Origin: an uncultured Chloroflexia bacterium
Lineage (GTDB): Bacteria > Chloroflexota > Anaerolineae > Anaerolineales > UBA4823
Length of the DNA stretch: 64,000 bases
Assembly (NCBI GenBank): GCA_963774275.1
Contig: CAVZEP010000008.1
Coordinates: forward strand, 43,858-107,857
Reading direction: 5' to 3'
The notes beneath the pieces were generated by a model. That model had not been told where the DNA came from and did no database searches. It saw only the letters and a list, made by a program, of their open reading frames with translations. Made by a program: the position numbers and the translations under genes. This document shows positions 125-54,933 of this stretch, piece after piece. Every line of letters starts with the position of its first letter. Position 1 is the first letter of the stretch.

Positions 125-1259
125 ATGTTCAACTCTCGCCTTCGTTCTCTCGTACGCAAAGAGTTCATCCAGATCCGGCGCGATAAGCGCACCCTCATTC
201 TGGTGCTTATTATCCCTATCATGCAGCTTTTTCTGTTGGGCTATGCAGCCACCAACGATGTGCGCAACGTGCCGTCTGGCAGTTTATGACCAGGACCGCA
301 GCCCTGAAGCCCGTGCATTACTGGATGCCTACCGCTCAGCAGATTATTTTACGATCGCCTTTGAAGCCAATTCTGAAACCGAGCTGCGCGATCTACTCGA
401 CAGCGGTCAGGCACGTGCCGGCTTGATCATCCCTCCGGACTACAGTAACGATATCCAGGGCGGGCAACCGGCTCAGGTTGTGTTTGTCCTGGATGGATCA
501 GACCCCACGGTTGCTTCGACCGCTCTTTCTGCCGCCCAATTGATCGGCCAGGCCCACGCCACGAACATCCTGGAATCACGCTTGCTGCGCCGTGGGCAGG
601 CGGCAGTCATCCAGCCTCCGGTTGTGGTCAGCACCACGGTATGGTACAACCCCGACCTGATCAGTGCGTACTTCATGATCCCGGGCGTCATTGGCATGAT
701 CTTATATGCCATCACTTCGATCCTGACTGCCAGTGCCATTGTGCGCGAGCGGGAACGCGGCACCATCGAGCAGCTGATTGTTACCCCCATCCGCCCCTGG
801 GAGCTGGTGGTCGGAAAGCTGTTACCTTATGTGATTCTTGCCTTCCTGAATGCCTTTGAAGTGCTGGCGATTGGTCACTACTGGTTTGGGGTGCCCATCC
901 GCGGCAGCTTGTGGCTGATCGCAGCAGCCTCATTCTTATTCCTGCTCACCAGCCTGGGCATCGGTTTGTTAGCTTCCACGATTGCAAATACTCAGCAGGA
1001 AGCCATGCTGACGGTTTGGATGATGCTGCTGCCCAGTATTTTCCTGGCGGGTTTTTTCTTCCCCCTGGAAGCGATGCCTAAAGTTTTACAATGGATCTCG
1101 TATGTCTTTCCGTTGCGTTATTACCTGGTTATCATCCGCTCCTTGATGTTGAAAGGGGTCGGAGTTGCTGCATATCAGGTGGATTTAATTGCCCTGGCAA
1201 TCTTTGGGGTTGTCATTATGACCCTGGCTGCCCTGCGTTTCCGGAAGCGTCTCGATTAA
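125..1259 (+). pseudogene. ABC-2 type transporter permease (YbhS/YbhR-like); frame broken by one extra nt near 272-277
   Basis: The first 54 codons from ATG 125 (MFNSRLRSLVRKEFIQIRRDKRTLILVLIIPIMQLFLLGYAATNDVRNVP) end at TGA 287-289. The 243..1259 ORF continues with LAVYDQDRSPEA... in the next frame. Joining them gives a canonical ABC-2 permease N-terminus plus 6 TM segments. Confidence 0.8.
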
Positions 1260-1283
1260 TCATTAGCCATTTTGGAGGTATCC

Positions 1284-2670
1284 ATGAAAATCCTTCGCAT
1301 ACTTATCATCATCTTGTTGATCACGGCGGTCGCTGTTGCAGGGTATTGGTATCTGGCCATCCGAGATACCACCTCAGTCACCGCTGCGCTGACGGGTTCC
1401 GGCACGGTTGAAACCACACAGGTCACCATATCTCCCGAGCTCACTGGGCGGGTTGTCGAAGTATCTGCCAACCAGGGGCAGTCGGTCAAAGCTGGTGATA
1501 TTTTATTTAAGCTCGACGATGGGTTGTTAGCCGCCCAGCGCAACCAGGCTCAGGTCAACCTGGAGGCTGCCCAGGCAGGGTTGGATGGTGCCAATACTGC
1601 CCTTGTGGCTGCCCAAGCTGCCGTTGCCACCGCCCAGGCTCAGTATGACCTGGCTTTGGCCTCGGCGCGCCAGCAGGCACAGCCTGCCCGCAGCCTTGCC
1701 TGGAGCCAGATTGCGCCTTCAGAGTTCGACCAACCCATCTGGTATTTTACCCATGCTGAAGAAATCACCGCGGCTCAGGATGCGGTCAGTACGGCTGGCG
1801 ATGCTTTAACAGCTGCTGCTACGAGCCTGAGTTCGCTGATGTCAGGTGGACCATACACGGATCTGGTTGCTATTGAAGCCCGCCTTGCCCTGGCCCAGGC
1901 AACTTTCCTGGATGCAACGGATGTGCTCAATCGCGCTCAAACCCAGGATGACCAATCTCTCCAAGACGCAGCCCAAGAATCTTACGATGACTCCGAAGCT
2001 GAGTTGGAGGCTGCCCAACAGGCCTATGATGAGCTCCTGAGCACCCAGGAGACCCAGGATATTTTGGATGCCCGAGCCCGCCTGGCAGTAGCCCAGGAAC
2101 ACCATGACACTGCCGTGGATCGTTATAATGCACTCCTCACCGGGGAAGATTCTCTGGCTGTCAAAGTTGCTGCTAACTCAGTGGCCCAAGCCCAGGCTAA
2201 TGTCGCCGCCACCGAATCGAAAGTGGTCCAGGCACAGAAGGCGATTGACCAGGCTCAAGCCGCCTCTAGACTTGATTGAGGTTCAATTGGGAAAGCTGGT
2301 TATCACTGCCCCTGTGGATGGAGTGGTTTTGGCACGCAATATCGAGCCGGGAGAGGTCGTGTTATCTGGTGCCACCGCCTTCACTTTGGGGCAGCTGGAA
2401 CACCTCACCATCACCGTTTACATCCTGGAGAATCGCTACGGGGAGGTTAAATTGGGTGATCAAGCCAGGGTCAGTGTGGATTCGTTCCCCGACCAGACTT
2501 TCGATGCCACGGTCATGCGCATAGCAGATCAGGCTGAATTTACCCCACGTAATGTGCAGACTGCTGAAGGACGGCAGACCACCGTCTTCGCGGTTGAGCT
2601 TTCGGTCCAAAACCCTGCTGGTCTGCTCAAGCCCGGCATGCCTGCTGATGTCACCTTCAGCCTACCTTAA
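1284..2670 (+). pseudogene. HlyD-family membrane-fusion/periplasmic adaptor protein (YbhG-like); frame broken near 2262-2267
   Basis: GGAGG at 1274-1278 precedes ATG 1284. The protein has an N-terminal TM, a lipoyl-like segment (VEVSANQGQSVKAGDILFKLDD) and a long Ala/Gln coiled coil. ORF 1272..2279 ends ...QAQAASRLD*, and the +1 frame continues LDLIEVQLGKLVITAPVDGVV... (beta-barrel part, 2104..2670). Confidence 0.8.
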
Positions 2671-2699
2671 ATTACCCACTTGCTCCGGGTTTTTGTGCG

Positions 2700-3675
2700 A
2701 TGACACAAATTTTAGTTTCTCACCTCTCCAAATCATTTGGCGACACCCAGGCGGTGAATGATATCAGTCTGCAGGTTGGAGCTGGTGAGATTTATGGATT
2801 GATTGGCCCCGATGGTGCTGGAAAGACCACTACCATGCGTTTACTGTGTGGAGCCCTGCAGCCCGACAGGCATAAAAGTGGATCAGTGCCGGTCATCCAG
2901 ATTGCAGGTGTGGACATGCTCAAACAGGCAGACCCTGCCAGGGCTCAGCTCGGTTACCTGCCGCAGCGTTTCTCGATGTATGAGGATTTGACCGTGTTGG
3001 AGAATCTGCGCTTCTTTGCCGAAGTTCGGGGTCTCTCCAAAACTTACTGGCAACCACGCTGTATGCAGATCCTCGAGTTTGTCGGCTTGGCTGGGTATAT
3101 TAATCGCCGCGCCGGTCAGCTCTCCGGTGGAATGCGCCAGAAGCTTGGTCTGGCAGTCGCCCTGGTTCATTCGCCTAAAGTGCTCCTGCTGGATGAGCCT
3201 ACCACCGGGGTGGACCCGGTTACCCGCCAGGACTTCTGGCAGCTCATCATCCGTCTGGTTGCCGAGGAAAGTGTCGCAGTTTTGGTCAGCACTCCCTATA
3301 TGGACGAGGCTGGGCGCTGTGCTCGGGTGGGTTTTATGCGCCTGGGGAAAATCCTGCTTGAAGGGAACCCCGATGTGCTGCAGGCGAAATTAAAAGGTCG
3401 CATCCTCGAAGTACACGGGGAGCCATTAACGCTTCTGCCGCGATATTGCACGTGCAGATGGCAACGTGGAAGATGCGCAGATGTTTGGTGACCGCCTGCA
3501 CTTACGCGTTCATCCTGGCTCAGCTCAGACGGTAAGTGAACGCCTGAAAACGCTCGCCCCTGCTCGTGGGGGCAAGCTCACCCTGTTGCGCTCCATCACG
3601 CCGCAGCTCGAGGATATCTTCATCGATTTATTGGAAAACCAGCCAACCAATAACCATCAGCAAGGGGAAGGATGA
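2700..3675 (+). pseudogene. ABC transporter ATP-binding protein (first of two, YbhF-like); frame broken near 3435-3445
   Basis: Walker A GPDGAGKTT, signature LSGGMRQK and Walker B LLLDEP are present. The ORF derails after ...EVHGEPLTLL, and the +1 frame continues RDIARADGNVEDAQMFGDRLHLRVHPG...LEDIFIDLL (3466..3675 ORF). Confidence 0.8.
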
Positions 3676-3678
3676 GCT

Positions 3679-4627
3679 ATGCCTGAAGAAGTCATTCTTG
3701 CCCATAACCTCACCAAAAAGTTCGACGATTTCACCGCAGTGGATCATATCTCTTTCAGCGTTGGGGCGGGGGAGGTGGTGGGTTACCTGGGACCCAACGG
3801 TTCTGGAAAAACAACCACGATCCGCATGTTGCTTGGCTTGCTACGCCCAAGCGAGGGGCAAGCCACCGTCTTGGGTTATGATATTGTGCGACAATCCGAG
3901 TTGGTGCGAGAGCGGGTGGGGTACATGTCGCAGAAATTTGCCTTATACCATGATCTTACCGTCGGGGAGAACCTGGCGTTTTATGCTGGTGTATACGGGG
4001 TCAGCCAGCGCGCCCGGTTGCAAGAGGTGTTGGAATTAATCGGCTTACGCTCCCTGGAAACTGTGCGTGTTAGCGACCTTTCCACGGGTTGGAAGCAACG
4101 ACTGGCACTCGGTACAGCCATTGTTCATCAACCACGCTTGCTCTTCCTGGATGAACCGACCTCTGGTGTGGACCCAACTGCCCGGCGCCAGTTTTGGGAT
4201 TTGATCTACACGGTGGTCGCCCAGGGGGTGACCGCGCTCGTGACCACCCATTATATGGATGAGGCGGAATATTGCGGGCGGGTTGGGATCATGCGTGATG
4301 GGAAATTACTGGCCATCGACAGCCCCTCACAATTAAAACACCACGCCCTGCCAGGTATCGCCTGGGATGTATTTGCCCAACCCCTCCTGCCTGCCCTGAA
4401 TGCCCTTAAACTTTGCCCGGGTGTGTTGCGGGCAGGTCTCACCGCAAATCATCTGCGTGCCATTGCCCCCGACTAATTTGGATGCTCATACAATTCGCAC
4501 GTGGTTAATGGATGCCGGGATACAGGTCGAACGCCTTGAGCCAGTCGAACCCACCCTTGAAGATGTGTTCCTGGCCTTGGCAGACACGAACTACACTCCT
4601 TCGCCTGATTCCCCACCTGCAACGTAA
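3679..4627 (+). pseudogene. ABC transporter ATP-binding protein (second); frame broken near 4466-4472
   Basis: Walker A GPNGSGKTT, signature LSTGWKQR and Walker B LFLDEPTSG are present. ORF 3679..4476 ends ...HLRAIAPD*, and the +1 frame continues TNLDAHTIRTWLMDAGIQVERLEPVEPTLEDVFLALA (4400..4627). Confidence 0.8.
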
Positions 4628-4681
4628 GCCAGTATAGTTATCCATCAAAAATCACCAGAAAATTGAATATAACTTACAATA

Positions 4682-4701
4682 TTTCAATATATTTATTGAA
4701 A
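4682..4701. promoter_or_regulatory. Inverted repeat TTTCAATA-N4-TATTGAAA just upstream of the -35; candidate operator
   Basis: A perfect 8-bp-arm palindrome was read directly. It is flanked by repeated TCAAATATT boxes (about 4706-4714 and 4727-4735) in a very AT-rich 160-bp spacer. Confidence 0.35.
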
Positions 4702-4716
4702 TAATTCAAATATTCA

Positions 4717-4744
4717 TTGACAAATATCAAATATTGTGTATAAT
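4717..4744 (+). promoter_or_regulatory. Sigma70-type promoter, TTGACA (4717-4722) - 16 nt - TATAAT (4739-4744)
   Basis: Both hexamers are consensus, about 45 nt upstream of AAGGAGG plus ATG 4790. Confidence 0.6.
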
Positions 4745-4789
4745 CTTGATTAGGAACAAAACAGCGTAGAATTACCCAAGGAGGCTGTG

Positions 4790-5023
4790 ATGGTTAACCT
4801 AGAGAATGATTTAATTAAAATCCATCAAGAATCAATTCGGCGGGAAGCCTATCTGAGAAAGGCCCTCGTTCAATCCGGGTTGGTCAACCCACCCATCATG
4901 GACCGTGCCTCATCCGCACTGGGTGAAACACTGATCCGTATTGGCACCAGGCTAAAAGAACGTGCCTACAACCGCTTGATTGTCGAAGAAGCCTCAGTCC
5001 CATCTTATCTGATCATGTTATGA
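4790..5023 (+). CDS. Small hypothetical protein (77 aa)
   Basis: The ORF follows AAGGAGG (4778-4784) and the consensus promoter. I recognise no family. Confidence 0.5.
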   Translation: MVNLENDLIKIHQESIRREAYLRKALVQSGLVNPPIMDRASSALGETLIRIGTRLKERAYNRLIVEEASVPSYLIML

Positions 5024-5087
5024 CCCGGATCAGCGGCACTACCCGCTTTGCATTCTTGCCATATCGTATGTTTGGAGGCGACCCTGA

Positions 5088-5474
5088 ATGAACACCTTAC
5101 CCACCCGATGTCCCCTTTGCGGCGGAGAAGTTACTGTCACCCGTATTTACTGCCAGAATTGTGATACCACGATCGAAGGACGCTTTGCAGGGGGTCCTTT
5201 CTCTCAGCTCACCCAGGAGCAGCTCTCCTTTGTTGAAACGTTCATCCGCTGTGAGGGCAAGATCACCCGCATGGAGGTTGAATTGGACCTGTCGTATCCC
5301 ACCATTCGCAACCGGTTACATGAGGTCATACGGGCTCTGGGATATGAGCCGGGTGGTGAAGAGCCGATCACCGGCCTGACCGATACCGAGCGGCAACGCA
5401 TTTTGGAAGACCTGGACCAGGGGCTGATCGGCGCTGAGGAAGCCATGCGATTACTGCAGGAAAGTGAGAAGTAA
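5088..5474 (+). CDS. DUF2089-type zinc-ribbon/HTH protein with C-terminal SHOCT-like helical motif
   Basis: The N-terminus reads CPLCGGEVTVTRIYCQNCDTTIEG, followed by LTQEQLSFVETFIRCEGKITRMEVELDLSYPTIRNRLHEVI (the DUF2089 pattern). The C-terminus carries ERQRILEDLDQGLIGAEEAMRLLQE. Confidence 0.75.
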   Translation: MNTLPTRCPLCGGEVTVTRIYCQNCDTTIEGRFAGGPFSQLTQEQLSFVETFIRCEGKITRMEVELDLSYPTIRNRLHEVIRALGYEPGGEEPITGLTDTERQRILEDLDQGLIGAEEAMRLLQESEK

Positions 5475-5476
5475 CT

Positions 5477-6745
5477 ATGGATAAGCAATTCGTTACTACC
5501 AGCGCCTCTCCCCGCATCGTATTGGATATCAGTGGTGACCTGCGCCTAAAAGGACAGGATACTTTCGAAGTCGTGGCAAAATCAGATGATCCCCAAAATC
5601 TTTTCCTTGAAACCCGGGAGGATCAGGTTTTTATTCGCTGCACCAGCGACTGTAACGTGCGTGTTCCGCGGGCTGCAATCATCCAGATCCAGGCCGCCCA
5701 TGGAGATGCCGTGATTAAGGCGCTGGATGGTGCTTTGACCATGGATACTGTGAGCGGAAACCTCGATCTGCGTAACGTAGGAGCGACTAAAATCGGCAAA
5801 ATGTATGGCAACTTATCCGCCAAAAATGTGGATGGTGACCTGAGCATCGATTCAATTTCTGGGGATACATCTGTGCGCAGTGTTCAGGGAGATTTCACCG
5901 TCACCAACACGATATCAGGCAATCTCAACCTGAGCGAGGTGGGTGGAAGTGCTAAAGCCACAGTCGATGGGAACATCAATCTCCGCCTGGATCCAGCCCC
6001 AGGGCACGATTATAATTTTACTTGCCGCGGGAATCTGTTTTGCCGGTTATCTGCCGATGCAAGTGCGGAAATCAGTGTGCCACATGCTTCCCAGGTGATG
6101 GTTGATTTGCCGGGTATTCACGCCTCGGCTCCTGTACAAACTCCCTATGCAATCACTTTGGGAGAGGGGGACGCGAAAATTATCCTTTCTGCTAACGGAA
6201 ATGTCGTCTTGGATACCCATGCACCCGATTGGGACATGGAGGATTTCGACCTGGACATTAATAGTGAAGTGAATGGGATGGCGGATGTGGTCAGCCAGCA
6301 GATCTCGCAACAGGTGGAATCACAGATGCGCATGATTGAAGACCAGCTGGATGCCCAGCTATCCAATTTGTCCATGCGCTTGAGCGCTGCCAAACTCAGC
6401 GCAGACCAGGCTCGCCGGATTGAAGATCGCGCTCGTGAAGCCAGCGAGCGAGCCACTGCTCGGGCTCAAGAGCGCGTCCGCCACGCCCAGGAGAGGATGG
6501 AGCAAAAACTATCTGCTGCGCAGCGTAAGATCGAGCTAAAAAAACAGGCGCGCGAACATGCCTCACGACATGCTCACCATGGTTGGAGTTTCAACATTCC
6601 AACACCTCCTACCCCCGCCACACCTCCGGGTGAACCGGTGAGCGAGGATGAGCGTTTGATGATCTTACGTATGTTGGAACAGAAAAAAATATCCATGGAA
6701 GAAGCTGAGGAGCTGCTTTCAGCGCTGGAAGGCAAAATAGAATAA
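5477..6745 (+). CDS. DUF4097-like (YvlB/LiaX-type 'putative adhesin' beta-helix) protein with coiled coil and C-terminal SHOCT-like motif
   Basis: It contains repetitive GDL/GNL...SGD/SGN beta-solenoid-like units, an Arg/Ala/Glu/Gln-rich coiled coil, a Pro-rich linker, and then ERLMILRMLEQKKISMEEAEELLSALEGK. It starts 2 nt after the previous gene. Confidence 0.7.
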   Translation: MDKQFVTTSASPRIVLDISGDLRLKGQDTFEVVAKSDDPQNLFLETREDQVFIRCTSDCNVRVPRAAIIQIQAAHGDAVIKALDGALTMDTVSGNLDLRNVGATKIGKMYGNLSAKNVDGDLSIDSISGDTSVRSVQGDFTVTNTISGNLNLSEVGGSAKATVDGNINLRLDPAPGHDYNFTCRGNLFCRLSADASAEISVPHASQVMVDLPGIHASAPVQTPYAITLGEGDAKIILSANGNVVLDTHAPDWDMEDFDLDINSEVNGMADVVSQQISQQVESQMRMIEDQLDAQLSNLSMRLSAAKLSADQARRIEDRAREASERATARAQERVRHAQERMEQKLSAAQRKIELKKQAREHASRHAHHGWSFNIPTPPTPATPPGEPVSEDERLMILRMLEQKKISMEEAEELLSALEGKIE

Positions 6746-6812
6746 AATGCTGTCGCCTGTCAAAAGCCATCCTTGCTGCCCAATCCCGATGTGAAAGGTT
6801 AATGGTAAGAAG

Positions 6813-7493
6813 ATGAACGAATCTGAACGTCTACAAATCCTTGAAATGATTGAAAAAGGTATCATCTCCGCTTCAGAGGGTGTCAAGTTGCTGAATTCCC
6901 TGCAGGGAGATCCCGATGAAGCTGCCCTTCCGCTGATCAGCAAGTCCGTTGCAGCCACCGAGGAGCAGCCTGGGATTAATCCAGCACCCGAAGTCATCGA
7001 TCAGGTACCTCCTCCTGAACCATCAACCTCTTCTACCCAGTACAAATTTGAATCTGGGATCAAGAAGTGGCGCAGGTTTTGGTGGATCCCCCTGACCATA
7101 GGGCTCGTCATCACCGTGGTCAGTGGGTTGCTCATGTTCCTGGCTTACCAAAAAAGTGGCTTTGGTTTCTGGTTTGCCTGTTTGTGGTTTCCATTGCTTT
7201 TCGGTGTAATCGTCATCAGTCTGGGAGCTGCCAGCCGAACTGCCCGCTGGCTGCACGTCAGAATTCAGCAGGCGCCGGGGGAACGCCCACAATCGATTGG
7301 CATCAGCCTGCCCGTCCCTATTCGTTTTACTGCCTGGATATTGCGCATTATTAAACCTCATATTTCCGGGTTGGATAAAGCCAGCCTGGATGAAGCCGTT
7401 CTTGCCTTGGAAAAAATATCACCCGATGAGCCTTTCTATGTGAAGGTGGATGAGGGTGAATCAGGTGAAAAGGTTGAAGTTTTTATTGGGTAA
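6813..7493 (+). CDS. Membrane protein: N-terminal SHOCT-like motif, hydrophobic TM core, and a C-terminal ~75-aa domain shared with the next gene
   Basis: The N-terminus reads ERLQILEMIEKGIISASEGVKLLNSL. TM stretches include WWIPLTIGLVITVVSGLLMFLAY and FWFACLWFPLLFGVIVISLGAA. The C-terminus ends ...YVKVDEGESGEKVEVFIG. Confidence 0.65.
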   Translation: MNESERLQILEMIEKGIISASEGVKLLNSLQGDPDEAALPLISKSVAATEEQPGINPAPEVIDQVPPPEPSTSSTQYKFESGIKKWRRFWWIPLTIGLVITVVSGLLMFLAYQKSGFGFWFACLWFPLLFGVIVISLGAASRTARWLHVRIQQAPGERPQSIGISLPVPIRFTAWILRIIKPHISGLDKASLDEAVLALEKISPDEPFYVKVDEGESGEKVEVFIG

Positions 7494-7559
7494 TGGTTTT
7501 ATCATTAAAAAGGTCTTATTACCACACCGATACAACATTGAAATTATTTGGAGGTCCAA

Positions 7560-7934
7560 ATGGCTACAACAGAAGAAAGAATGCGAATATTAAGAATGAT
7601 CCAGGAAGGCAAGATTACTGCTGAAGAGGGCGCCAAGCTGCTGGCTGCGTTGCGCGAGAGCCGCAAGGATGTGCGCACGGTGATCACGTCCACTCGTTCT
7701 GGGAAGGGGATGCTGCGCGTGCGCGTCACCGATATGGTCACTGGAAAAGCCAAGGTCAGTGTAAATCTCCCCATTGGGCTCGTGGATGCGGGGATGAGCA
7801 TTGCCAGTCAGTATGCACCAGGCATTGATTTTGCTCAAATCACTGACGCGATCCGCTCAGGGTCGATGGAAGGCAAGATCGTGGACGTGGTGGATGAAGA
7901 GGACGGTGAACATATTGAAGTATTTATCGAGTAA
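7560..7934 (+). CDS. Soluble paralogue of the previous gene (SHOCT-like motif plus shared C-terminal domain)
   Basis: TTTGGAGG precedes ATG 7560. The N-terminus reads EERMRILRMIQEGKITAEEGAKLLAAL, and the C-terminus (...KIVDVVDEEDGEHIEVFIE) parallels the C-terminus of 6813..7493. Confidence 0.65.
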   Translation: MATTEERMRILRMIQEGKITAEEGAKLLAALRESRKDVRTVITSTRSGKGMLRVRVTDMVTGKAKVSVNLPIGLVDAGMSIASQYAPGIDFAQITDAIRSGSMEGKIVDVVDEEDGEHIEVFIE

Positions 7935-7978
7935 GGGTAAGTCTTGGTTCTCTGATACTTCTTTATTTGGAGGTTATT

Positions 7979-8944
7979 ATGTCTGACGAAAGCATTGAAA
8001 AGACGTTTCAAGTTACTGATCCTGCTCGCCTGAGCATCTCAAATATCCGTGGCTCGATCACCATTTCACCTGGAGAAGCGGGTGTGATTGAGGTCAAAGC
8101 CATCAAGCATGGAAATTTTGACAGCGGCCACTATAGCGTGGAAATGACCCAGGCTTCAGACGGCAGCGTAAGTGTAGAAACCCGCGCGGATGAGGTTTTA
8201 TTCGGATTCCTGTCCCACCCACCCAAGGTGGAGTATTCCGTGCGTGTGCCTCAGGGCATCCATTTAGACGCCTCCTGCGTCAGCAGCACCCTCAATGTGA
8301 GTGGGCTTAAAGGTGTTTTTAAATTAAAAACTGTCAGTGGTGATACCGATCTGACGAACCTATCCGGTCCAACCAAGGTTAAAGGGGTAAGTGGGGATAT
8401 TTCCGGTTCCCATTTGGAGGGCGTTCTGGAGGCGGGCATGGTATCAGGAAGGCTGCGTTTGCTTGAATCGACCTTCCCTAGCGCAGATGCAACCACGGTA
8501 AGTGGTGATTTGATCCTTCAAACCACGCTCTCAGATGGACCCTACTATTTCAGCTCGGTATCGGGTAATGTACGCTTGCTGGTACCTGCGGACACGCACT
8601 GTAACGTGGAACTTAATAGCGTCAGCGGAAGTATTCGGTCTTCACTGCCTGCCACCACCATCCGTATGGGTCATGGGTTAAAAGTCACCCAGATACAAAG
8701 TGGAGGCGTCCCTGTTCGCCTCAAGAGCGTCTCTGGCGGAGTATCGATTGAAACAGAAGGTATTCCTGCTTCTGTTGTTCCGGTCACCTCTCCAGAGACT
8801 GCAGCACCGGTCCCACCTGTCCCTCCATCTCCTCCATTCACGCCAGCACCTGCCCCACTCAGCACTGCAGAAATCCTCCAGCGCATCGAGCGGGGTGAGA
8901 TGACCGTGGATGACGCTATCAAGTTGATGAAAGATCAGCCTTAG
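7979..8944 (+). CDS. DUF4097-like beta-helix protein with Pro-rich linker and C-terminal SHOCT-like motif
   Basis: TTTGGAGG precedes ATG 7979. It has repeated VSGD/VSGS/VSGN units, a PVPPVPPSPPFTPAPAP linker, and a C-terminal STAEILQRIERGEMTVDDAIKLMK. Confidence 0.7.
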   Translation: MSDESIEKTFQVTDPARLSISNIRGSITISPGEAGVIEVKAIKHGNFDSGHYSVEMTQASDGSVSVETRADEVLFGFLSHPPKVEYSVRVPQGIHLDASCVSSTLNVSGLKGVFKLKTVSGDTDLTNLSGPTKVKGVSGDISGSHLEGVLEAGMVSGRLRLLESTFPSADATTVSGDLILQTTLSDGPYYFSSVSGNVRLLVPADTHCNVELNSVSGSIRSSLPATTIRMGHGLKVTQIQSGGVPVRLKSVSGGVSIETEGIPASVVPVTSPETAAPVPPVPPSPPFTPAPAPLSTAEILQRIERGEMTVDDAIKLMKDQP

Positions 8945-9021
8945 CCACAACCTTGTGTGTTAAATAGCATCGCCTCACTTTTGTAAACCTCTCCAGCAGG
9001 TATAATAGCCCTTTGCTTAAT

Positions 9022-10545
9022 ATGAGCAACTCGCAAACTTCCTCCAATCGCCCAACCGGCATGTTCGGTTTTTCCATTGTCTGGGTCGGTCAGATTATCT
9101 CTTTGCTTGGCACCAGCATGACCGGCTTTGCCATGACCATCTGGGCTTACGAAAAGACGAACGCCGCCACTGCCCTGGCTATGGTCGGCTTCTTCTTCGT
9201 GGCACCCATGCTCATCGCATCACCATTCGCTGGTGCTATCGTGGATCGTTCCAATCGCAAGCTGATGATGATGCTGAGCGATATGGCCTCCGGTATTGCC
9301 ACTGTGATTATCCTCATCCTGTATGCATCGGGAAATCTGCAGATCTGGCATCTGTTCATCACCAGTGCCTTCCAGGGGGTGTTCCAGTCCTTCCAATGGC
9401 CTGCCTACTCAGCCGCCATCTCCACCATGATCCCCAAGGAGCAATATGGGCGGGCCAATGGCATGCTCTCGCTGGCAGATACGGCTTCCAACATCTTTGC
9501 GCCTATCCTGGCAGGTTCATTGTTGGGCATTATTGGTTTCTCTGGCATCCTGCTGATCGACCTGGCCACATTTGCATTTGCCCTGGGTGCGTTATTGTTC
9601 GTCCACATCCCTCAACCCAGGATTACCGAGGAAGGGCGACAGGCACAAGGGAATATATTCAAAGAAGCAGCATATGGTTTCCGTTATATTCTGATGAGAC
9701 CATCCCTGCTTGCCCTGCAGCTGGTTTTTCTCGCGGGAAATTTCTTTATTGGCATTCCGGGTGCAGTCCAGGCAGCTATGATCCTGGCAAATACTGGTAG
9801 CAGTGAAAAAGCCCTGGCCTATGTGAACTCGGCTGCGGCAATTGGGGGTGTGGTGGGTGGCCTGGTTATGAGTGCCTGGGGTGGTCCCAAGCGCCGGGTG
9901 CATGGAGTGCTGGTGGGTTGGTTTATCTCCAGCCTGCTCGGTGGTGTGCTCATGGGGTTTGGAAGAACTATTCCTGTGTGGGCAGTTGCCGGCTTTTTTG
10001 GTATGTTTTTTGTACCCATCATCAACGGTTCCAATCAAGCCATCTGGCAGGCGAAAGTCCCACCAGACCTGCAGGGGCGGGTTTTTTCCATCCGCCGGCT
10101 GATTGCCTGGTTTGTCAGCCCGCTGGCCATGCTTATCGCCGGTCCCGTAGCTGATAAAGTGCTTGAGCCTGCCATGCGCAACCCTCAAAGCTTCCTGGCT
10201 TCTTCTCTGGGTTGGCTTATTGGCACAGGGCCTGGCCGGGGCATGGCACTGCTCTTTATTATTGGCGGTGGATTGTGCGCTTTGGTTGTGATCAGCGGTT
10301 ATGCCTTTCGAATTTTACGCGAGGTGGAAACCTTGCTTCCAGACCATGACACGCTCCCTTCTGCCGCAACCGCCGGAGAGCCAGCCCCAGACGAGCGCTT
10401 GACCCGCATGCAGGAATTGCTTGAAGCCCGCAACCATTGGGTCACACAACCCGCATCTCTCGAGCGTGAGCTGGCGCTTAATGCAATCACGAATTCATTA
10501 CGCAAGCTGGGTCATGGGGCATCTATTCCCCCCGAAGCCGCATAG
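9022..10545 (+). CDS. MFS transporter (MFS_3/EntS-like) with a cytoplasmic C-terminal tail
   Basis: It has about 12 hydrophobic segments and the DRSNRK loop motif after TM2. ATG 9022 lies inside the 9013 ORF. Confidence 0.75.
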   Translation: MSNSQTSSNRPTGMFGFSIVWVGQIISLLGTSMTGFAMTIWAYEKTNAATALAMVGFFFVAPMLIASPFAGAIVDRSNRKLMMMLSDMASGIATVIILILYASGNLQIWHLFITSAFQGVFQSFQWPAYSAAISTMIPKEQYGRANGMLSLADTASNIFAPILAGSLLGIIGFSGILLIDLATFAFALGALLFVHIPQPRITEEGRQAQGNIFKEAAYGFRYILMRPSLLALQLVFLAGNFFIGIPGAVQAAMILANTGSSEKALAYVNSAAAIGGVVGGLVMSAWGGPKRRVHGVLVGWFISSLLGGVLMGFGRTIPVWAVAGFFGMFFVPIINGSNQAIWQAKVPPDLQGRVFSIRRLIAWFVSPLAMLIAGPVADKVLEPAMRNPQSFLASSLGWLIGTGPGRGMALLFIIGGGLCALVVISGYAFRILREVETLLPDHDTLPSAATAGEPAPDERLTRMQELLEARNHWVTQPASLERELALNAITNSLRKLGHGASIPPEAA

Positions 10546-10578
10546 GCAGCCTTCGCACAAAATTTCAAACCCGATAAG

Positions 10579-11133
10579 CTAAACTAATTTCCTTTCCAGT
10601 ACAACCGATGCGATGGTGTCGTCTGCGTGTACGGTATCCCCTTCATAATGGACAATCGTCCGCCAGCCCATATCGATCCAAAACCGCAAAGCTGGCCAAT
10701 TTTTTAAGCATACTTTCAACCAAATCGCCTCATACTCGCCCAGCTGTCTGAATTGATCCCATATCCCGTATGCCAGTTCCGAGCCATAACGGTTCTTCTG
10801 AAAATGAGGATGAACCACAAACATGGAAATAAACACCCGGCGTGGCATGGGGGCATCATGATACAGGTGAAAATAACCGATGATGTTCTCTCCACCTCTC
10901 AGCAGCACACTTTGCATCTTGAAAATTTCTTTCGCAGTAGGGTTGAGCCCCAGGCTCTTCGATACCAGATGTACAAAAGCCTCCTCGGTTTCTTCATAAA
11001 ACGTGCTGTCCCACTCGCCCACATAGGAACAGGCGTTGAACACGTTCCTCAAATGTGGAACATCCCCCATGGTGGCATCTCTCACGAATAATCTCTCCGT
11101 CCCCCAGCTTTCAGGTAAGACTTTCATGCTCAC
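10579..11133 (-). CDS. GNAT family N-acetyltransferase
   Basis: The 184-aa protein resembles RimJ/RimL-type GNATs (HPHFQKNRYGSELAYGI in the acetyl-CoA pocket region). Confidence 0.65.
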   Translation of the reverse strand: MSMKVLPESWGTERLFVRDATMGDVPHLRNVFNACSYVGEWDSTFYEETEEAFVHLVSKSLGLNPTAKEIFKMQSVLLRGGENIIGYFHLYHDAPMPRRVFISMFVVHPHFQKNRYGSELAYGIWDQFRQLGEYEAIWLKVCLKNWPALRFWIDMGWRTIVHYEGDTVHADDTIASVVLERKLV

Positions 11134-11327
11134 ATCCCTCTAAAGCTTAACTTATATGAGTTTACTCTCCCGTTAAACACTCTTGGTCGATGCAGCTCGA
11201 CATATATTGTATCTTATTAGCATCATATTTTCTGGCAGGAGCTTAATCATTAGATAAAACTAAAAAAACGCGGTACACTTGTTTTGTGAAAAGTTACACA
11301 GCCCTAGGTTGATTGGAGAAAAATTTA

Positions 11328-14300
11328 ATGAGAAGAATGCGCAAACTGCTCCCTGTTTTGATTCTTGTATTGATCTTTGTTGTTGGGTTACTTCTCACCA
11401 GTCCGACGAAAGCTCAAAATGGCACCATCTGGCTCCCCTTCGATGGCACATCCGAGCCTGCTGAACCATCCCTGGCGCTGCTCAGTTCCAGCCCCTCCCA
11501 GGTTAACCTACAAGCCGTCCTTCCAGGTTCATATGCGGACACGATCCGCGTTGAAGGCACTACCTACACGCGACTGTTGGCTTCGGGATATGGTTATCCC
11601 GCCGTTTACGGACTACCTGAGCTTCCCGTTCTGCGCAGGGAAGTCGAAATTCCCTTCGGCGCTCAGGTTTCTGTTGAGCTCATATCTTCCCAATATACAG
11701 ATAGCACACTGCTGGGGCTTGGTCTAAATCCCATCTACCCCATGCAACCACCTGTCCCTAAAGTGGAAGGTGTCGAAGAAAATCAGCCCTTCATCATAGA
11801 CAGTCAATACTATGCCAATGGGTCGCTCTATCCGTCCAGCGTGATCTCTTTGGGTGAGCCCTATATCATTCGAGGCCATCGCCTCCTGACTGTCGAGATA
11901 TGGCCAGTTGGATATGATCCCATGCAAGGTAGCTTGCGCCTTTATTCCCAGGTGACCTTCCGACTCCACCTCTCCGGCGCAGATATGCCTGCCACAAACA
12001 CTCTGGCAAATCGTTATTCATCGCAGGAGTATGATCTTACTTTATCTGAGCGCGTGCTTAATTACAATCAGGGTCGCCCGCTTGGCGTGAATCAACAGGC
12101 TGGCTACCTGATTATCACAGCCGATGCATATGTTGATGCCATTGTTCCGCTGGCTGATTTACGTCAGAGCCGTGGTTTTGACGTCACCCTGACTCGCCAG
12201 TCTGATATACCCAACGGTACGACCACCGCAGGAATTAAAGCCTACATCCAAACCGCATACGACACCTGGCCTGTGCCACCCTCCTATGTCTTGTTGGTCG
12301 GCGATACCAATACTATCCCCACCTGGACTGGTCCCACGATTGGGACTTCGACGGATCTCTATTACGGTACCATGGATGGAGAATCTGACTGGCACCCGGA
12401 TATTGGACGAGGTCGTTTCCCGGTGCGTTCGATTGCACAGACGACCGCCATGGTGAATAAGTACCTGGCCTATTCCGGTCTCACCGGACAGGAGCCCTGG
12501 CTGAAAACTGCTTCCTTCCCCGCCACCTGTGACAATTACGAGGTCGCCGAAGGAAGCCATAATTATGTCATGGATACCCACACTGCTCCAGGCGGCTGGA
12601 CCGGGACCTTCCCGGTTAATCCCACCCCAGGTGGCGATAAACTCTACTGCATCACCCACGATGCTACCCATGCGGATTTGGTGGAGCAGTTCAATCTGGG
12701 TCGTTGGGCGATTATCTATTCCGGCCATGGCAGTTATAGTGGCTGGGAAATGGACTATACCCCTGCCGATATCCAAAATATTACTAACTACGGCATGTAC
12801 CCTTTTGTTGCCTCTCATGCCTGCCTAAGCGGAGATTACGGCCAAACTGAGGTCTTCGGTGAGACCTGGGTGCTACAGGAGAATAAAGGTGCCCTGGTTT
12901 ACTGGGGCTCTTCCACGTACAGTTATTGGGGTGAAGATGATGTGCTCGAGCGTGTCATGTTCGATTCCCTCTTTGACGATACGACCTCATATCCTGATGT
13001 GGCTACGATGACCGATGCTGGTCTGGCAGGGGTTGAAGCTGCTTACCCCTCCAGTGCCCGCTATTATCGCGAAACTTACAATGTCCTGGGAGACCCGACC
13101 GTCAAGTTGTTCATGGAACCCGAGCTGCCAATCTTTACACTGAGTGCCGAGCCCTCCAGCCTGGAGGTTTGCACCCAGGGTACGCTCACCTCGGATGTCG
13201 TAATTGGCAGCATCATGGGTTATTCATCAACCGTCTACCTTGAAACGGATGAGCCGCCCTTCAATGTCGTTGCCAGTTTCGATCCGTCTCAAGCTACTGC
13301 ACCATACACCTCCACCCTGACGTTGGACGTCTCTTCGGGTGCTCCTGAGGGAGATCACACCCTTACCATCACCGCCACCGATCAGGTCAGCTTCACCATG
13401 CATACCCAGCTCAACCTGCGCATCAACACCGCCTCACCCAACGTACCAACTCTGATCAGCCCGGCAGACGGTGCTACCAACCAGCCATTCACGCCTTCCT
13501 TCGGCTGGGAAAACCAGCTCCTCACCAGAAGCTATAACTTTGAGCTGGCGTCCAGCCCATTGTTTGAGTCCCCCATCGTCATCGAGACTGGCCTGACTGC
13601 TCCCTCCTATACACTGTCAAATCCATTAGCTGGTGGTACCTGTTACTGGTGGCGCACCCAGGCCGCCAATGTCTGTGGCACCGGCGCTTGGGCTGACCCC
13701 TTCCACTTCAGCATCGTTTCCCTGTTCGCTTCATTCATCGACGATATGGAATCGGGTGATGGTCAGTGGACGCATGCAGCCACCCAGGGAATTGACCATT
13801 GGGTAATCTCGGATGATCAATCTCACAGCCCTACCCAGGCCTGGTTTGTTCCAGACGATGGGGATATCACCGACACTCGCCTTTGGAATACTAGTCCCGT
13901 CCTGGTGGGTGAGGGCAGCGTTCTGACCTTTTGGCACCAGTATCAGTTCGAGGGCACAAGCTATGATGGCTCAGTCCTGGAGATTTCAGCCGATGGGGGT
14001 GATTCATGGGTCGATCTTGGGCCATATATCACCGCTAATGGTTACAATGGCACGATATCCTCAGGTTACAGCAACCCTCTGGCAGGTCGGGACGGTTGGA
14101 CAGATGATTTAACTACATGGACGGAAGTGACTGTAGACCTGGGCAGTTTTGCCGGGCAAAGTGTGATCATCCGCTGGCGCTTAGGTTGTGATTCGTCAGT
14201 AGGCGACACCGGCTGGTTCATCGATGATGTACAAATTACCTCTCCTTTGCCACCCAACCCGGCACCAACCCTTTTGACCATTTTCCCCAATTCGGGCGAT

Positions 14301-16049
14301 AGCAGTGAGCCGACCCCGGTCGTGATCACGGGGGAAAATTTCATCGGTTCGCCTGCTTTGAAGCTGGGGGATACCTGGCTGGAATCTGTAGTAGTGGAGA
14401 GTCCAACCACGATCAACGCCATCGTGCCAGCAGGCATGCCGGATGGAGTGTATGATCTGACAATCTATAATGGTGATTGCCAGCAAGCTGTTTTGATTGA
14501 GGCTTTCACGGTTACTTCGGTGCCGGTACCCATTTCCGGACTGGAAGCCACCAACGATAGCCCCACCTATATTGGAGATACAACCCACTTTACGGCCACG
14601 GTAGAAACCGGCAATGGTGTGAGCTATGCCTGGGCATTTGGGGATGGCAGCCATGGCAATGGACGCACTCCCCAGCATCTCTATCCTGACCTGGGGATTT
14701 ATACTGCCATCGTCACAGCCACCAACGTGCTCAATTCTGAGATTGCCACCACCACCGTGACCATCGTCGAAGAGCCTATCACCGGCTTGCAGGCCGTCAA
14801 TGACAGCCCGACCGAGCTGGGTAACCCGACCGCGTTGGCTGCGACCATTGCTACCGGTACCAATGTCACGTATGAATGGGACTTTGGAGATGGCATGGCG
14901 GGCACCGGTGATGTATTAACCCATACATTCTCGTCTGCGGGTCTCTACACGGCAATTGTCACTGCTTTCAATGACGTCGGCTCTGAAAGCGCATCGACGG
15001 AAATCATCATCACGGATGTTCCTATTACCGGGCTAACCGCTGCCAATAGCAGTCCAACCGAGCTGGGCAGCCTCACTACGTTGACTGCCACCATTGAGGC
15101 GGGCACGAACGTCACCTATGCCTGGGACTATGGGGATGGTGCTTCCGGTATGGGTGACCTGACTACCCATGCATATCCTGCCGTCGGTATCTATACCGCC
15201 ATCGTGACCGCTACCAACTCCACCGGTTCAGCTGTATCGGATACCATGCTGACCATCGTAGATGCTCCCATCATTGGCTTGACAGCTTCCAATGACAGCC
15301 CAACTTTACTCGGATACACGACCACGTTGACCGCCACCCTGCTTAACGGTACCAATGTTACCTATGAGTGGAACTTTGGTGATGGCACATCCGGCAGCGA
15401 AGCCGTGGAACCACATACCTATCCAGCAGTGGGCAGTTATACTGCAGTGGTCACTGTTACGAATAGCGTTAGCACAGCTAGCATATCGACAGTCGTAACC
15501 GTCACCGATGTACCCATCACCGGCTTGCTGGCTGCCAATGATGGCCCCACTGAGTTGGGTAACCTGACCACACTGACCGCCACCCTGCTCAACGGTACCC
15601 ATGTTACCTATGCATGGGACTTTGGCGATGGGACGCTGGGTATTGGAGCTGTGGGTATACACACCTATCCAGCCGTGGGCAATTACACCGCCGTGGTCAC
15701 TGCCACCAATGGCATCAGCTCCGAGAGTACATCGACGATCGTTTCGATCGTCGATGTACCCATCACCGGCTTGCTGGCTACTAATGACAGTCCGATGGAG
15801 CTGGGCAACCTGACTACACTAAGCGCAACCATCGTTAACGGCACCCATGTGATCTATACCTGGGACTTTGGCGATGGAACCGCCGGAATCGGCCCAGTGG
15901 TGACGCATCTATATACCGCGGCTGGTGATTACATCGCCACGGTGACAGCCGCCAACTCGATGGGCAATGTGTCTGCAACCACGCCGGTAGTTATCACCGA
16001 GCCGCCGCAGGTGGTTCACTTCACCTACCTGCCAGTGACATTTAGATAA
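11328..16049 (+). CDS. Secreted multidomain protein: peptidase C25 (gingipain-like) catalytic domain, jelly-roll-like domain, IPT/TIG-like domain and six PKD domains
   Basis: There is a signal-peptide-like N-terminus. The C25 pattern reads YLIITADAY...YVLLVGDTNTIPT...DLYYG...GRGRFP, with the His in IIYSGHGS and the Cys in FVASHACLSG. Six WDFGDG-type PKD units follow. Confidence 0.75.
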   Translation: MRRMRKLLPVLILVLIFVVGLLLTSPTKAQNGTIWLPFDGTSEPAEPSLALLSSSPSQVNLQAVLPGSYADTIRVEGTTYTRLLASGYGYPAVYGLPELPVLRREVEIPFGAQVSVELISSQYTDSTLLGLGLNPIYPMQPPVPKVEGVEENQPFIIDSQYYANGSLYPSSVISLGEPYIIRGHRLLTVEIWPVGYDPMQGSLRLYSQVTFRLHLSGADMPATNTLANRYSSQEYDLTLSERVLNYNQGRPLGVNQQAGYLIITADAYVDAIVPLADLRQSRGFDVTLTRQSDIPNGTTTAGIKAYIQTAYDTWPVPPSYVLLVGDTNTIPTWTGPTIGTSTDLYYGTMDGESDWHPDIGRGRFPVRSIAQTTAMVNKYLAYSGLTGQEPWLKTASFPATCDNYEVAEGSHNYVMDTHTAPGGWTGTFPVNPTPGGDKLYCITHDATHADLVEQFNLGRWAIIYSGHGSYSGWEMDYTPADIQNITNYGMYPFVASHACLSGDYGQTEVFGETWVLQENKGALVYWGSSTYSYWGEDDVLERVMFDSLFDDTTSYPDVATMTDAGLAGVEAAYPSSARYYRETYNVLGDPTVKLFMEPELPIFTLSAEPSSLEVCTQGTLTSDVVIGSIMGYSSTVYLETDEPPFNVVASFDPSQATAPYTSTLTLDVSSGAPEGDHTLTITATDQVSFTMHTQLNLRINTASPNVPTLISPADGATNQPFTPSFGWENQLLTRSYNFELASSPLFESPIVIETGLTAPSYTLSNPLAGGTCYWWRTQAANVCGTGAWADPFHFSIVSLFASFIDDMESGDGQWTHAATQGIDHWVISDDQSHSPTQAWFVPDDGDITDTRLWNTSPVLVGEGSVLTFWHQYQFEGTSYDGSVLEISADGGDSWVDLGPYITANGYNGTISSGYSNPLAGRDGWTDDLTTWTEVTVDLGSFAGQSVIIRWRLGCDSSVGDTGWFIDDVQITSPLPPNPAPTLLTIFPNSGDSSEPTPVVITGENFIGSPALKLGDTWLESVVVESPTTINAIVPAGMPDGVYDLTIYNGDCQQAVLIEAFTVTSVPVPISGLEATNDSPTYIGDTTHFTATVETGNGVSYAWAFGDGSHGNGRTPQHLYPDLGIYTAIVTATNVLNSEIATTTVTIVEEPITGLQAVNDSPTELGNPTALAATIATGTNVTYEWDFGDGMAGTGDVLTHTFSSAGLYTAIVTAFNDVGSESASTEIIITDVPITGLTAANSSPTELGSLTTLTATIEAGTNVTYAWDYGDGASGMGDLTTHAYPAVGIYTAIVTATNSTGSAVSDTMLTIVDAPIIGLTASNDSPTLLGYTTTLTATLLNGTNVTYEWNFGDGTSGSEAVEPHTYPAVGSYTAVVTVTNSVSTASISTVVTVTDVPITGLLAANDGPTELGNLTTLTATLLNGTHVTYAWDFGDGTLGIGAVGIHTYPAVGNYTAVVTATNGISSESTSTIVSIVDVPITGLLATNDSPMELGNLTTLSATIVNGTHVIYTWDFGDGTAGIGPVVTHLYTAAGDYIATVTAANSMGNVSATTPVVITEPPQVVHFTYLPVTFR
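14529..16004 (+). repeat. Six in-frame tandem 246-bp coding repeats (PKD domains) inside the C25-family gene
   Basis: Unit starts (P-I-T/S-G-L codons) were read at 14529, 14775, 15021, 15267, 15513 and 15759, an exact 246-bp period. Confidence 0.9.
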
Positions 16050-42226: not shown

Positions 42227-42391
42227 GTATGCTCGTGGCAGGGTCACCAAGCATAAAGTAATCTGAACAAATTTCATCATAAACCCTCAAATCAACCCTC
42301 TAAATACACCATTTGGTAGATGATTTTCATATTCTAATCTGGTAAAGTAAAACCAATCTAAATATTTTTATTAAACAAGAGGAGATTGATA

Positions 42392-54688: not shown

Positions 54689-54933
54689 TAGGATAAATAC
54701 TGAATTGGCAGCATGTAAATTAGTGCTGTTGATCTTTCTGTTTATTGGTAGTTGGAAAAAATGCTCTCCAATTATTACTTCTAGTTTGCTTAACCTTCTA
54801 TATTTTATACGTAATCAGATAAAAATTGGATGTAATTTGATTAACAAAACATGAACGGGTCCGTAAAAACAAGGCTGGTGGGCTAAAAATATGGCCATCT
54901 TCTCTCGAAAGTCGATCATTCCTTGGTAGCGGT

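Follow-up and report, generated by a model that had tools for sequence, protein, structure and literature searches.

Why should five consecutive genes, whose products otherwise differ, all begin or end with the same short helical hairpin? We addressed this question for P1 to P5, five genes lying on a 64,000-nucleotide stretch (64 kb; hereafter the window) of contig CAVZEP010000008.1 (assembly GCA_963774275.1) from an uncultured Chloroflexia bacterium of the Anaerolineales. The original prediction, made from the sequence alone, held that the shared module is a docking or oligomerisation handle which joins the five products in one envelope-to-transcription signalling assembly. The reading that we favour, with a probability of about 0.5, is that a transcription factor is controlled via hairpin-to-hairpin contacts with soluble, membrane and Toastrack partners, and regulates its own operon and an efflux pump. 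The genes concerned are the following.

P1, 5088-5474, + strand: DUF2089-family regulator; hairpin C-terminal, nt 5388-5462
P2, 5477-6745, + strand: Toastrack-like protein with a charged helical region; hairpin C-terminal, nt 6650-6727
P3, 6813-7493, + strand: paralogue of P4 with two transmembrane (TM) segments; hairpin N-terminal, nt 6825-6902
P4, 7560-7934, + strand: soluble protein of 124 amino acids (aa); hairpin N-terminal, nt 7575-7652
P5, 7979-8944, + strand: accessory Toastrack; weak hairpin C-terminal, nt 8864-8932

A SHOCT-like hairpin in five proteins

The five plus-strand open reading frames (ORFs), and the ends at which they carry the motif, were as originally described, and the peptides quoted for it translated exactly from their coordinates. 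Those coordinates were exact for P1 to P4, and the range given for P5 (8864-8929) was one codon short of the 23 aa quoted. A Pfam search with hidden Markov models (HMMs) identified the ~27-aa two-helix motif of P1-P5 as PF22746 (SHOCT-like_DUF2089-C). P4 (47.3 bits, E = 1.2e-12), P2 (31.4 bits, E = 1.3e-7) and P3 (30.4 bits, E = 2.6e-7) scored above the gathering cut-off of 27 bits, and P1 (22.6 bits, E = 7.9e-5) and P5 (16.6 bits, E = 6.2e-3) below it. The suggested likeness to the SHOCT-like helix pair at the N-termini of YvlB and LiaX was confirmed by this match, and by a weak match of the NCBIfam LiaX model over the first ~27-48 residues; P1 and P3 matched only positions 1-48 of that model.

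The motif was then compared with its background by leave-one-out HMMs, each trained on four of the copies, with which all 1,501 six-frame fragments of the window were searched for the fifth. P4 (E = 1.6e-6), P3 (E = 1e-5) and P2 (E = 1.7e-3) were clearly retrieved. The P1 copy was marginal (E = 0.22), yet it was the top non-training match, and the P5 copy was not retrieved. No sixth copy was found among these fragments by leave-one-out or iterated HMMs. The helical C-terminal tail (DERLTRMQELLEAR) of the major facilitator superfamily (MFS) protein encoded after P5, considered as a sixth copy, gave no HMM match. When the motif HMM was iterated over 80 related loci, the five window copies scored at E = 3e-14 to 1e-5. 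In the ±6 kb flanks of these loci, matches were confined to cluster genes and six ORF pieces, which were cut or frameshifted and lay between or beside cluster genes. Based on the Pfam, leave-one-out and iterated-HMM scores, we conclude that the motif is real in all five proteins, P5 having the weakest copy.

Retention in orthologues gave a similar picture. The motif was kept in 66/70 orthologues of P1, 70/74 of P2, 66/70 of P3 and 80/81 of P4 (94-99%), and in 9/24 of P5, all among the window's closest relatives. The failure of P5 in the leave-one-out scan, and the Pfam scores of P1 and P5 under the gathering cut-off, are what a chance or low-complexity resemblance among helical Glu/Leu-rich termini might produce. 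However, three copies exceed a curated cut-off, no further match occurred among the window fragments, and in each of the families P1-P4, 66-80 orthologues keep the motif at the same end. Chance resemblance is already refuted for P1-P4, and we regard it as vanishingly improbable for the set.

AlphaFold2 (AF2) models, which cover P1 and P4 among the five proteins, placed the hairpin at the protein terminus as a helix-turn-helix set off by a disordered linker. In P1 its helices span residues 99-110 and 116-125; in P4 they span 4-15 and 21-33, followed by a disordered segment at 36-47. The hairpins are acidic (net charge -0.7 to -2.7) and almost devoid of aromatic residues, and their helices are amphipathic, with hydrophobic moments of 0.22-0.38.

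The conserved gene set and its P1 + P4 core

Intergenic gaps from P1 to P5 measure 2-67 nt, with the starts of P4 (ATG 7560) and P5 (ATG 7979) set by GGAGG ribosome-binding sites (RBS), and no terminator-like site was predicted in these gaps. The best reading is that P1-P5 form one operon. The spacers gave no match to Rfam RNA elements. PADLOC found no anti-phage defence components, barring a weak coiled-coil match between P2 and BrxC (15.5 bits), and a defence-system identity for the cluster was rejected on this ground.

A scan of species-representative genomes provided the 80 loci, in which P4 is 53-89% identical; all belong to Anaerolineae-class Chloroflexota. Among the 69 species loci with enough flank, P1 was present in 64, P2 in 66 and P3 in 60, and P1-P4 were all present and collinear in 56. 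P5 was found in 23 of 74. Co-conservation as one unit, on which the original prediction depended for all five genes, therefore holds for P1-P4, and does not extend to P5 and its motif, which are add-ons of one clade.

A TM profile detected TM segments in P3 alone among the five proteins, and none in P2 and P5. The two P3 helices (aa 89-112 and 119-140; nt 7077-7148 and 7167-7232) carry lysine or arginine on both sides, so that both P3 termini are predicted to be cytoplasmic. P3 consists of the hairpin, an acidic/Pro linker, the TM helices and a domain that we call X (aa ~158-226, nt 7284-7490); P4 consists of the hairpin, the disordered linker and domain X (aa 51-124, nt 7710-7931). The two X domains matched one another by BLASTP (E = 5e-4) and hhalign (99%, E = 3e-18). 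Since the N-terminal hairpin and C-terminal X are common to both, P3 is a membrane-inserted paralogue of P4, in agreement with the labels (membrane protein, soluble paralogue) first given to them.

In the AF2 model of P4, domain X has a predicted ββ-αα-ββ fold (pLDDT about 80-90). It matched no Pfam or NCBIfam family, no relative among PDB sequences (best E = 1.2, a spurious hit to PLpro) and no Foldseek PDB neighbour (best E = 0.45); its derivation from a Toastrack fragment or from the helical region of P2 was rejected (hhalign probability <1%). An exhaustive HMMER search with X alone returned 532 clusters among 1.84 billion representatives. X was C-terminal in 150/150 of the matches listed, all short proteins of 66-273 aa; the N-terminal hairpin was present in 120 of these 150, and most of the others were fragment-like. 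Homologues of P4 were detectable in 2,856 cases, the top 120 clusters being 81-98% identical. Judged from sequence, no other gene of the cluster is as well conserved as P4, which accompanies P1 invariably.

Variants of P4 were also observed. The 172-aa metagenomic protein P0165 has two tandem hairpins followed by X, and the 273-aa P0150 (L082 6001-6822) has N-terminal TM helices, then the hairpin and X, P3 and P4 being merged into one gene. Both should be useful for modelling hairpin packing. A divergent X protein, P0267, lies on a 674-nt contig that offers no gene context.

More divergent loci retained reduced or rearranged versions of the set. In L082-84, P1 is followed by a Toastrack-hairpin protein, a GNAT gene, an MFS gene and a single protein with TM, hairpin and X; L085 holds P1 and a hairpin+X gene and no more; L087 adds an MFS gene to this pair. 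In L086, P1 is followed at some distance by hairpin+X, a hairpin protein, an ABC-2 exporter, GNAT and another hairpin protein. Outside the Chloroflexota, a P1-like gene precedes a hairpin+X gene on Paraclostridium bifermentans plasmids (X at E = 3.5e-12) and on a Niallia taxi megaplasmid (X at E = 4.5e-11), both Bacillota, and on an Embleya replicon (Actinomycetota), where a DrrA-like ATP-binding cassette (ABC) ATPase follows. The P1 and P4-like genes are adjacent in L085, L087, L088, L089 and L093. A tail-less DUF2089 protein of Phocaeicola, a single case, has no neighbour with a hairpin. Since the pair recurs in minimal Anaerolineae loci, Bacillota and Actinomycetota, we conclude that P1 + P4 is the invariant core, and that P2, P3, P5 and orf78 (a small ORF upstream of P1) are Anaerolineae elaborations of it.

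Two side observations concern plasmid loci. In both Bacillota loci a third ORF of 93-98 aa, X-like and without hairpin, follows the P4-like gene (L088 6777-7070; L089 5746-6024). Its match to X is weak in Paraclostridium (E = 1.6e-3) and was seen by eye in Niallia; it would make the Firmicute version a set of three. On a Legionella adelaidensis plasmid (L090 5001-7307), a hairpin-tailed DUF2089 gene lies between genes for an SbmA/BacA-like transporter and a Yip1-like five-TM protein. A hairpin at the N-terminus of the latter, a likeness by eye only, found no support from Pfam or the motif HMM and was rejected.

The two remaining operon proteins contain a Toastrack. P5 matched PF13349 (DUF4097/Toastrack) at 64 bits (cut-off 22.9), as its label had implied, and P2, given the same label, scored 20.1 bits, just under that cut-off, yet is homologous to P5: hhalign aligned it with the P5 Toastrack over 236 columns. 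The ortholog sets of P2 and P5 overlap through cross-detection, which inflates the E-value of this alignment, but homology is demonstrated. In P2, an N-terminal Toastrack beta-helix is followed by a long charged helical region (~aa 265-365), from which a Pro-rich linker leads to the C-terminal hairpin; in P5, a Pro-rich linker joins the Toastrack to a weak SHOCT-like hairpin at the C-terminus.

Do proteins conserved together in this way form one complex? Orthologous hairpins are 57-83% identical depending on the family, P4 being highest at 83%, and paralogous hairpins 41-60%, with within-genome and between-genome values differing by no more than 0.02 (a weak test). Each protein family has its own hairpin consensus in this comparison. 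Both results point to hairpin copies that are ancient and separately constrained. The lack of a covariation signal between copies in this weak test would also suit a module without a shared complex, in which the hairpin is a generic homo-oligomerisation element or stabilising cap and the genes have common regulation and related functions. Many unrelated globular domains indeed carry SHOCT or SHOCT-like modules, which are promiscuous. We judge such an arrangement improbable: within the 80 loci only cluster genes carry the motif, P1 and P4 remain paired in three phyla, and size-exclusion chromatography (SEC) gave a negative result for self-association of SHOCT (PMC3581485).

A second possibility is that each hairpin independently fixes its own protein to the inner leaflet, the products being co-localised without docking to one another; membrane anchoring of this kind is the explicit prediction of Ravi et al. 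2024 (PMC11237479). The amphipathic helices fit it, and the soluble members would need a route to the membrane, the site of P3 and of the exporter. However, P3 already has two TM helices and nevertheless keeps the hairpin in 66/70 orthologues, which argues that the hairpin is not a mere membrane anchor. Its net acidic, nearly aromatic-free composition is also unlike that of classical in-plane membrane anchors, which are basic and aromatic-rich, and a DNA-binding regulator fixed at the membrane would need an extra release step. We consider independent anchoring rather unlikely. A protein-protein contact module is favoured over pure anchoring by this composition, and because minimal versions of the system retain exactly two hairpin-bearing proteins; the P4 hairpin is moreover the most conserved, as expected of a hub.

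Regulator, promoter and exporters

P1 matched the zinc ribbon PF22747 at 50.5 bits (cut-off 27.6) and the helix-turn-helix (HTH) family PF09862 at 74.4 bits (cut-off 33.4), as its original label of Zn-ribbon and DUF2089 HTH had indicated. The zinc ribbon and a sigma4/GerE-like HTH are joined by a flexible linker to the C-terminal SHOCT-like hairpin. The putative zinc ligands C8, C11, C22 and C25 are invariant in 66 orthologues, and the SYPTIRNRL helix and GYEP hinge are invariant or nearly so. The AF2 model (pLDDT 80.5) is built of two beta-hairpins and a three-helix HTH, from which a linker modelled at low confidence leads to the terminal hairpin. Foldseek gave as best local superpositions of the HTH DosR-C, GerE and sigma-L region 4 (~50 residues, ~2 Å, probability 0.9-0.98), and all of the best ones were LuxR/GerE or sigma-region-4 DNA-binding domains. 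Nothing meaningful was found for P1 or P5 among PDB sequences. About two thirds of close P1 homologues have a precomputed PF22746 match. On these models we infer that P1 is a putative DNA-binding transcription factor.

Three features around the operon bear on what such a factor might control.

Control region, 4620-4745, + strand: AT-rich (~20-22% GC), with promoter, direct repeat and palindrome; candidate P1 operator
orf78, 4787-5023, + strand: ORF of 77-78 aa between promoter and P1; likely start ATG 4790
MFS transporter, 9013/9022-10545, + strand: DHA3/Mef-like, ~507 aa from ATG 9022

The 160-nt spacer upstream of orf78 and P1 has 20-22% GC and contains a perfect sigma70-type promoter (TTGACA 4717-4722, 16-nt spacer, TATAAT 4739-4744), the sole one of its kind in the window. 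A 21-nt direct repeat (4689-4709 and 4710-4730), a palindrome (TATTTCAATA-n4-TATTGAAATA, 4680-4703) and TCAATATT/ATATTGA-type elements lie in the control region, and such a cluster of operator-like elements was found in the window at the operon promoter only. Two other blocks below 30% GC occur in the window (42261-42420 and 54721-54860); neither holds a perfect promoter or an operator-like cluster. This organisation is conserved. A ~20% GC block precedes P1 in 64/64 loci against a background of ~55% GC, and contains the promoter in 58 of them, with a spacer of 16 nt in 51 and 17 nt in 7. Octamers of the TCAATATT/ATATTGAA type occur in 23-26 loci, where ~2 would be expected, at 9.3 per kb inside the low-GC block and 0.26 per kb elsewhere. 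Upstream of the -35 hexamer, the TCAATATT-like elements follow one another with a phase of ~10 bp, and further copies lie within the promoter spacer. By their sequence and placement, these phased elements are a good candidate for the operator of P1.

Between this promoter and P1, orf78 is preceded by a GGAGG RBS of its own and matches no Pfam family or known domain; its C-terminus bears a conserved P-x-[FY]-[LM]-IML motif. It lies upstream of P1 in L001-L007 only, the window's closest clade, has homologues in 11 clusters within 5.8 billion proteins, and evolves much faster than P1 and P4.

The MFS protein matched PF07690 (111 bits) and TIGR00900 (194 bits) and is Mef/EntS-like. In the ±6 kb flanks of the 80 loci, screened for window-derived families only, an MFS gene was the sole recurrent neighbour, lying on the same strand directly 3' of the cluster in 37/70 loci. 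It lies between P3 and P4 in L052, L074, L076, L077 and L079, and inside the divergent loci L082 (4736-6004) and L087 (6487-7773). No terminator was predicted between P5 and the MFS gene of the window. We consider this gene the probable, if putative, output gene of the operon.

Other genes flank the cluster. Upstream, a YbhGFSR-like exporter operon (243-4627, + strand) encodes an ABC-2 permease, an HlyD-type adaptor and two ABC ATPase ORFs. Several of its ORFs are split or out of frame (HlyD 1272-2279 and 2104-2670; continuations 3466-3675 and 4400-4627), which points to frameshifts or errors in the assembly. L001-L008, L010 and L032 likewise have the ATPase pair upstream of the cluster. Downstream of the MFS gene, on the opposite strand, lies a GNAT acetyltransferase gene (10579-11133, - strand) in the window and close relatives; GNAT genes also lie inside the operon in L082 (3774-4739) and L086 (10575-11600), and 2.4 kb upstream on a Paraclostridium plasmid (L088 3610-4452). 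This recurrent link may be functional (modification plus export) or coincidental. Beyond it, an ORF of 1,578 aa (11313-16049, + strand) begins with a signal-like segment and contains many tandem repeats of ~90 aa that look PKD-like by eye; it probably encodes a secreted or surface protein.

A link to envelope stress had been proposed from the resemblance to YvlB and LiaX. No Pfam or NCBIfam match to PspA/LiaH, PspC, LiaF-type or LiaRS proteins was found in the five proteins or in the window neighbours at 243-11133, and no Psp/Lia or two-component genes in the annotated distant loci L082-L087. The recurrent partner is instead an MFS or ABC exporter, and the envelope-stress link stands as an analogy only.

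The exporters raise a further possibility, namely that the hairpin is a common ligand sensor, each protein independently binding one small molecule, peptide or lipid such as the pump substrate. The LiaX helical N-terminal domain, which starts with the motif, is reported to sense daptomycin and LL-37 (Khan 2019, cited in PMC10269926), and the LiaX beta domain restrains LiaFSR (PMC10269926). The weak match of the NCBIfam LiaX model to the motif points the same way, as do the linkage of the operon to MFS and ABC exporters and the presence of DUF2089 genes in bacteriocin export/immunity loci. However, 27 aa offer little room for a specific pocket, LiaX is extracellular while the hairpins here are all predicted to be cytoplasmic, and a family-specific hairpin consensus is not expected for one shared ligand. 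We think a common sensor quite improbable.

Known systems and a possible docking mechanism

Several parts of this system have published counterparts. Ravi et al. 2024 (PMC11237479) named the Toastrack, defined the SHOCT-like hairpins that various domains bear at either terminus and split DUF2089 into zinc ribbon (ZnR), HTH and SHOCT-like parts. They listed a 'DUF2089 -> SHOCT-like+X' gene dyad (Table S4) and a four-gene context of sigma factor, zf-HC2 anti-sigma, membrane Toastrack and DUF2089, and proposed the Toastrack as an assembly platform for sub-membrane signalling complexes. The original prediction knew of no description of the five-gene arrangement; this holds for the operon itself, which is not in the text of that paper, and does not hold for the architectures and the dyad, which were already listed. 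P1 has the three-domain ZnR-HTH-SHOCT-like architecture and P4 that of SHOCT-like + X. Among the published Toastracks, too, hairpins occur at either end, and membrane-proximal signalling to transcription was proposed.

The differences are as follows. P1 and P4 are separated here by P2 and P3. The published Bacillus X, of like architecture, may be the same domain as ours; within the Bacillaceae, the sequence match to X is that of the Niallia partner (E = 4.5e-11). Of the four-gene context DUF2089 alone is found here, neither the cluster nor its neighbours having sigma or anti-sigma domains, and the Toastracks, membrane-anchored there, are soluble here and carry a C-terminal hairpin. The present operon has in addition the two-TM X paralogue P3, a linked MFS exporter and a hairpin on every gene. 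Finally, where membrane anchoring was predicted for the hairpin, the data here lean to protein-protein contact.

P2 and P5 resemble YvlB and LiaX in combining a SHOCT-like hairpin with a DUF4097 Toastrack, and differ in that the hairpin is N-terminal there and C-terminal here. Two-hybrid assays have shown interactions of YvlB with PspA, LiaH and Yvl proteins (PMC9239133). Scores of 12.7-24 bits against LiaX (NCBIfam NF038025; COG3595; cut-off 350, best P5 at 24) and of 24-40 bits against LiaG (NCBIfam; cut-off 285) exclude orthology. The output would also differ from the Lia system, being a one-component DUF2089 regulator rather than a two-component system. Short DUF2089 proteins are further known from leaderless-bacteriocin export/immunity loci (enterocin DD14 ORF C, bawcin BawC, aureocin A53-type), the bawcin cluster being a published case of DUF2089 paired with Yip1 (PMC10707071). 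There an HTH protein lies beside HlyD, ABC, Yip1 and PH-domain membrane proteins, which parallels the exporter linkage here. Those proteins, however, are 89-98 aa, and the example from L. plantarum (97 aa, L091) lacks a zinc ribbon, shows no hairpin that an HMM detects and has no SHOCT-like+X gene beside it. Canonical SHOCT (PF09851) is likewise a short terminal hairpin of two amphipathic helices on many unrelated domains; it belongs to another Pfam family, is mostly C-terminal and has no known link to DUF2089. Oligomerisation was proposed for it, and the only published test of self-association, by SEC, was negative (Eberhardt et al. 2013, PMC3581485). In the literature we came across no experiments on either PF22746 or a DUF2089 regulator.

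How might the operon work? A common docking handle is a plausible role for the hairpin as its sequence stands, the hairpins acting as heterotypic protein-protein contact modules. P1 would bind the phased TCAATATT-like sites, which lie both within its own promoter and around it, and from there would control the operon and the downstream MFS pump. Its availability could be set by partner switching or sequestration, depending on whether soluble P4 or membrane-bound P3 holds its tail, with the Toastrack proteins P2 and P5 possibly acting as scaffolds and a membrane-proximal or pump-substrate signal as the input. Such a circuit would be analogous to PspF-PspA-PspBC or to sigma/anti-sigma pairs. The likeness is in the proposed logic only, in which a regulator is held by a partner whose engagement with the membrane shifts under stress, and in the sigma-region-4/GerE class of the P1 HTH; there is no sequence or domain relation to PspA, PspF or anti-sigma domains, and the contact module here would be a 27-aa hairpin.

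Several observations weigh against this mechanism. The motif copy of P5 is marginal, and the paralogue comparison described above offers no sign of co-adapted hairpins. The negative self-oligomerisation test of canonical SHOCT also counts here, although it concerned a different family and homo-association only. The HTH of P1 has no globally significant Foldseek PDB match (best E = 0.33). The AT-rich phased elements could be an UP element instead of operators. Only about half of the loci have the MFS gene next to the cluster, and the pump gene may be transcribed with the operon or from a weak promoter of its own, a TATAAT (9001-9006) without a well-spaced -35 lying just before its ATG.

A bolder version of this mechanism is possible but more doubtful. 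The heterotypic hairpin 'zipper' would define an undescribed class of one-component regulation, in which P1 is captured and released by competition between P4 and P3 on Toastrack scaffolds, X serves as the signal reader, and efflux pumps are switched on by membrane or pump-substrate stress, with the core of the system present in at least three phyla.

What is new here is the collinear conservation of P1-P4, the paralogy of P3 and P4, the P1+P4 core across phyla, the linkage to exporters and the conserved promoter. The operon is a lineage-specific expansion of a regulator + partner gene pair found in three phyla, often beside export pumps. There are at least thousands of DUF2089 regulators, and hairpins of the SHOCT and SHOCT-like kinds occur widely, but for neither group has a function been established by experiment; oligomerisation, membrane anchoring and ligand binding are the roles currently considered for the hairpin. 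The operon is a clean natural experiment in this respect, with the same hairpin on a regulator, a soluble partner, a membrane paralogue and one or two Toastracks, and it offers a defined strong promoter and a likely output gene, the efflux pump. Its two-gene minimal form occurs in cultivable Bacillota and Actinomycetota, so that docking versus anchoring is directly testable. Such carriers include Paraclostridium bifermentans DSM 14991 (plasmid genes KXZ80_RS16365/16370), Niallia taxi (pMEGANia), Priestia megaterium (BMQ_3692 and its neighbour) and Embleya. If docking is true, it would provide a mechanism for many 'hypothetical' regulators encoded beside exporters and bacteriocin-immunity genes, and would inform how YvlB- and LiaX-type proteins reach their partners in antibiotic-tolerance pathways.

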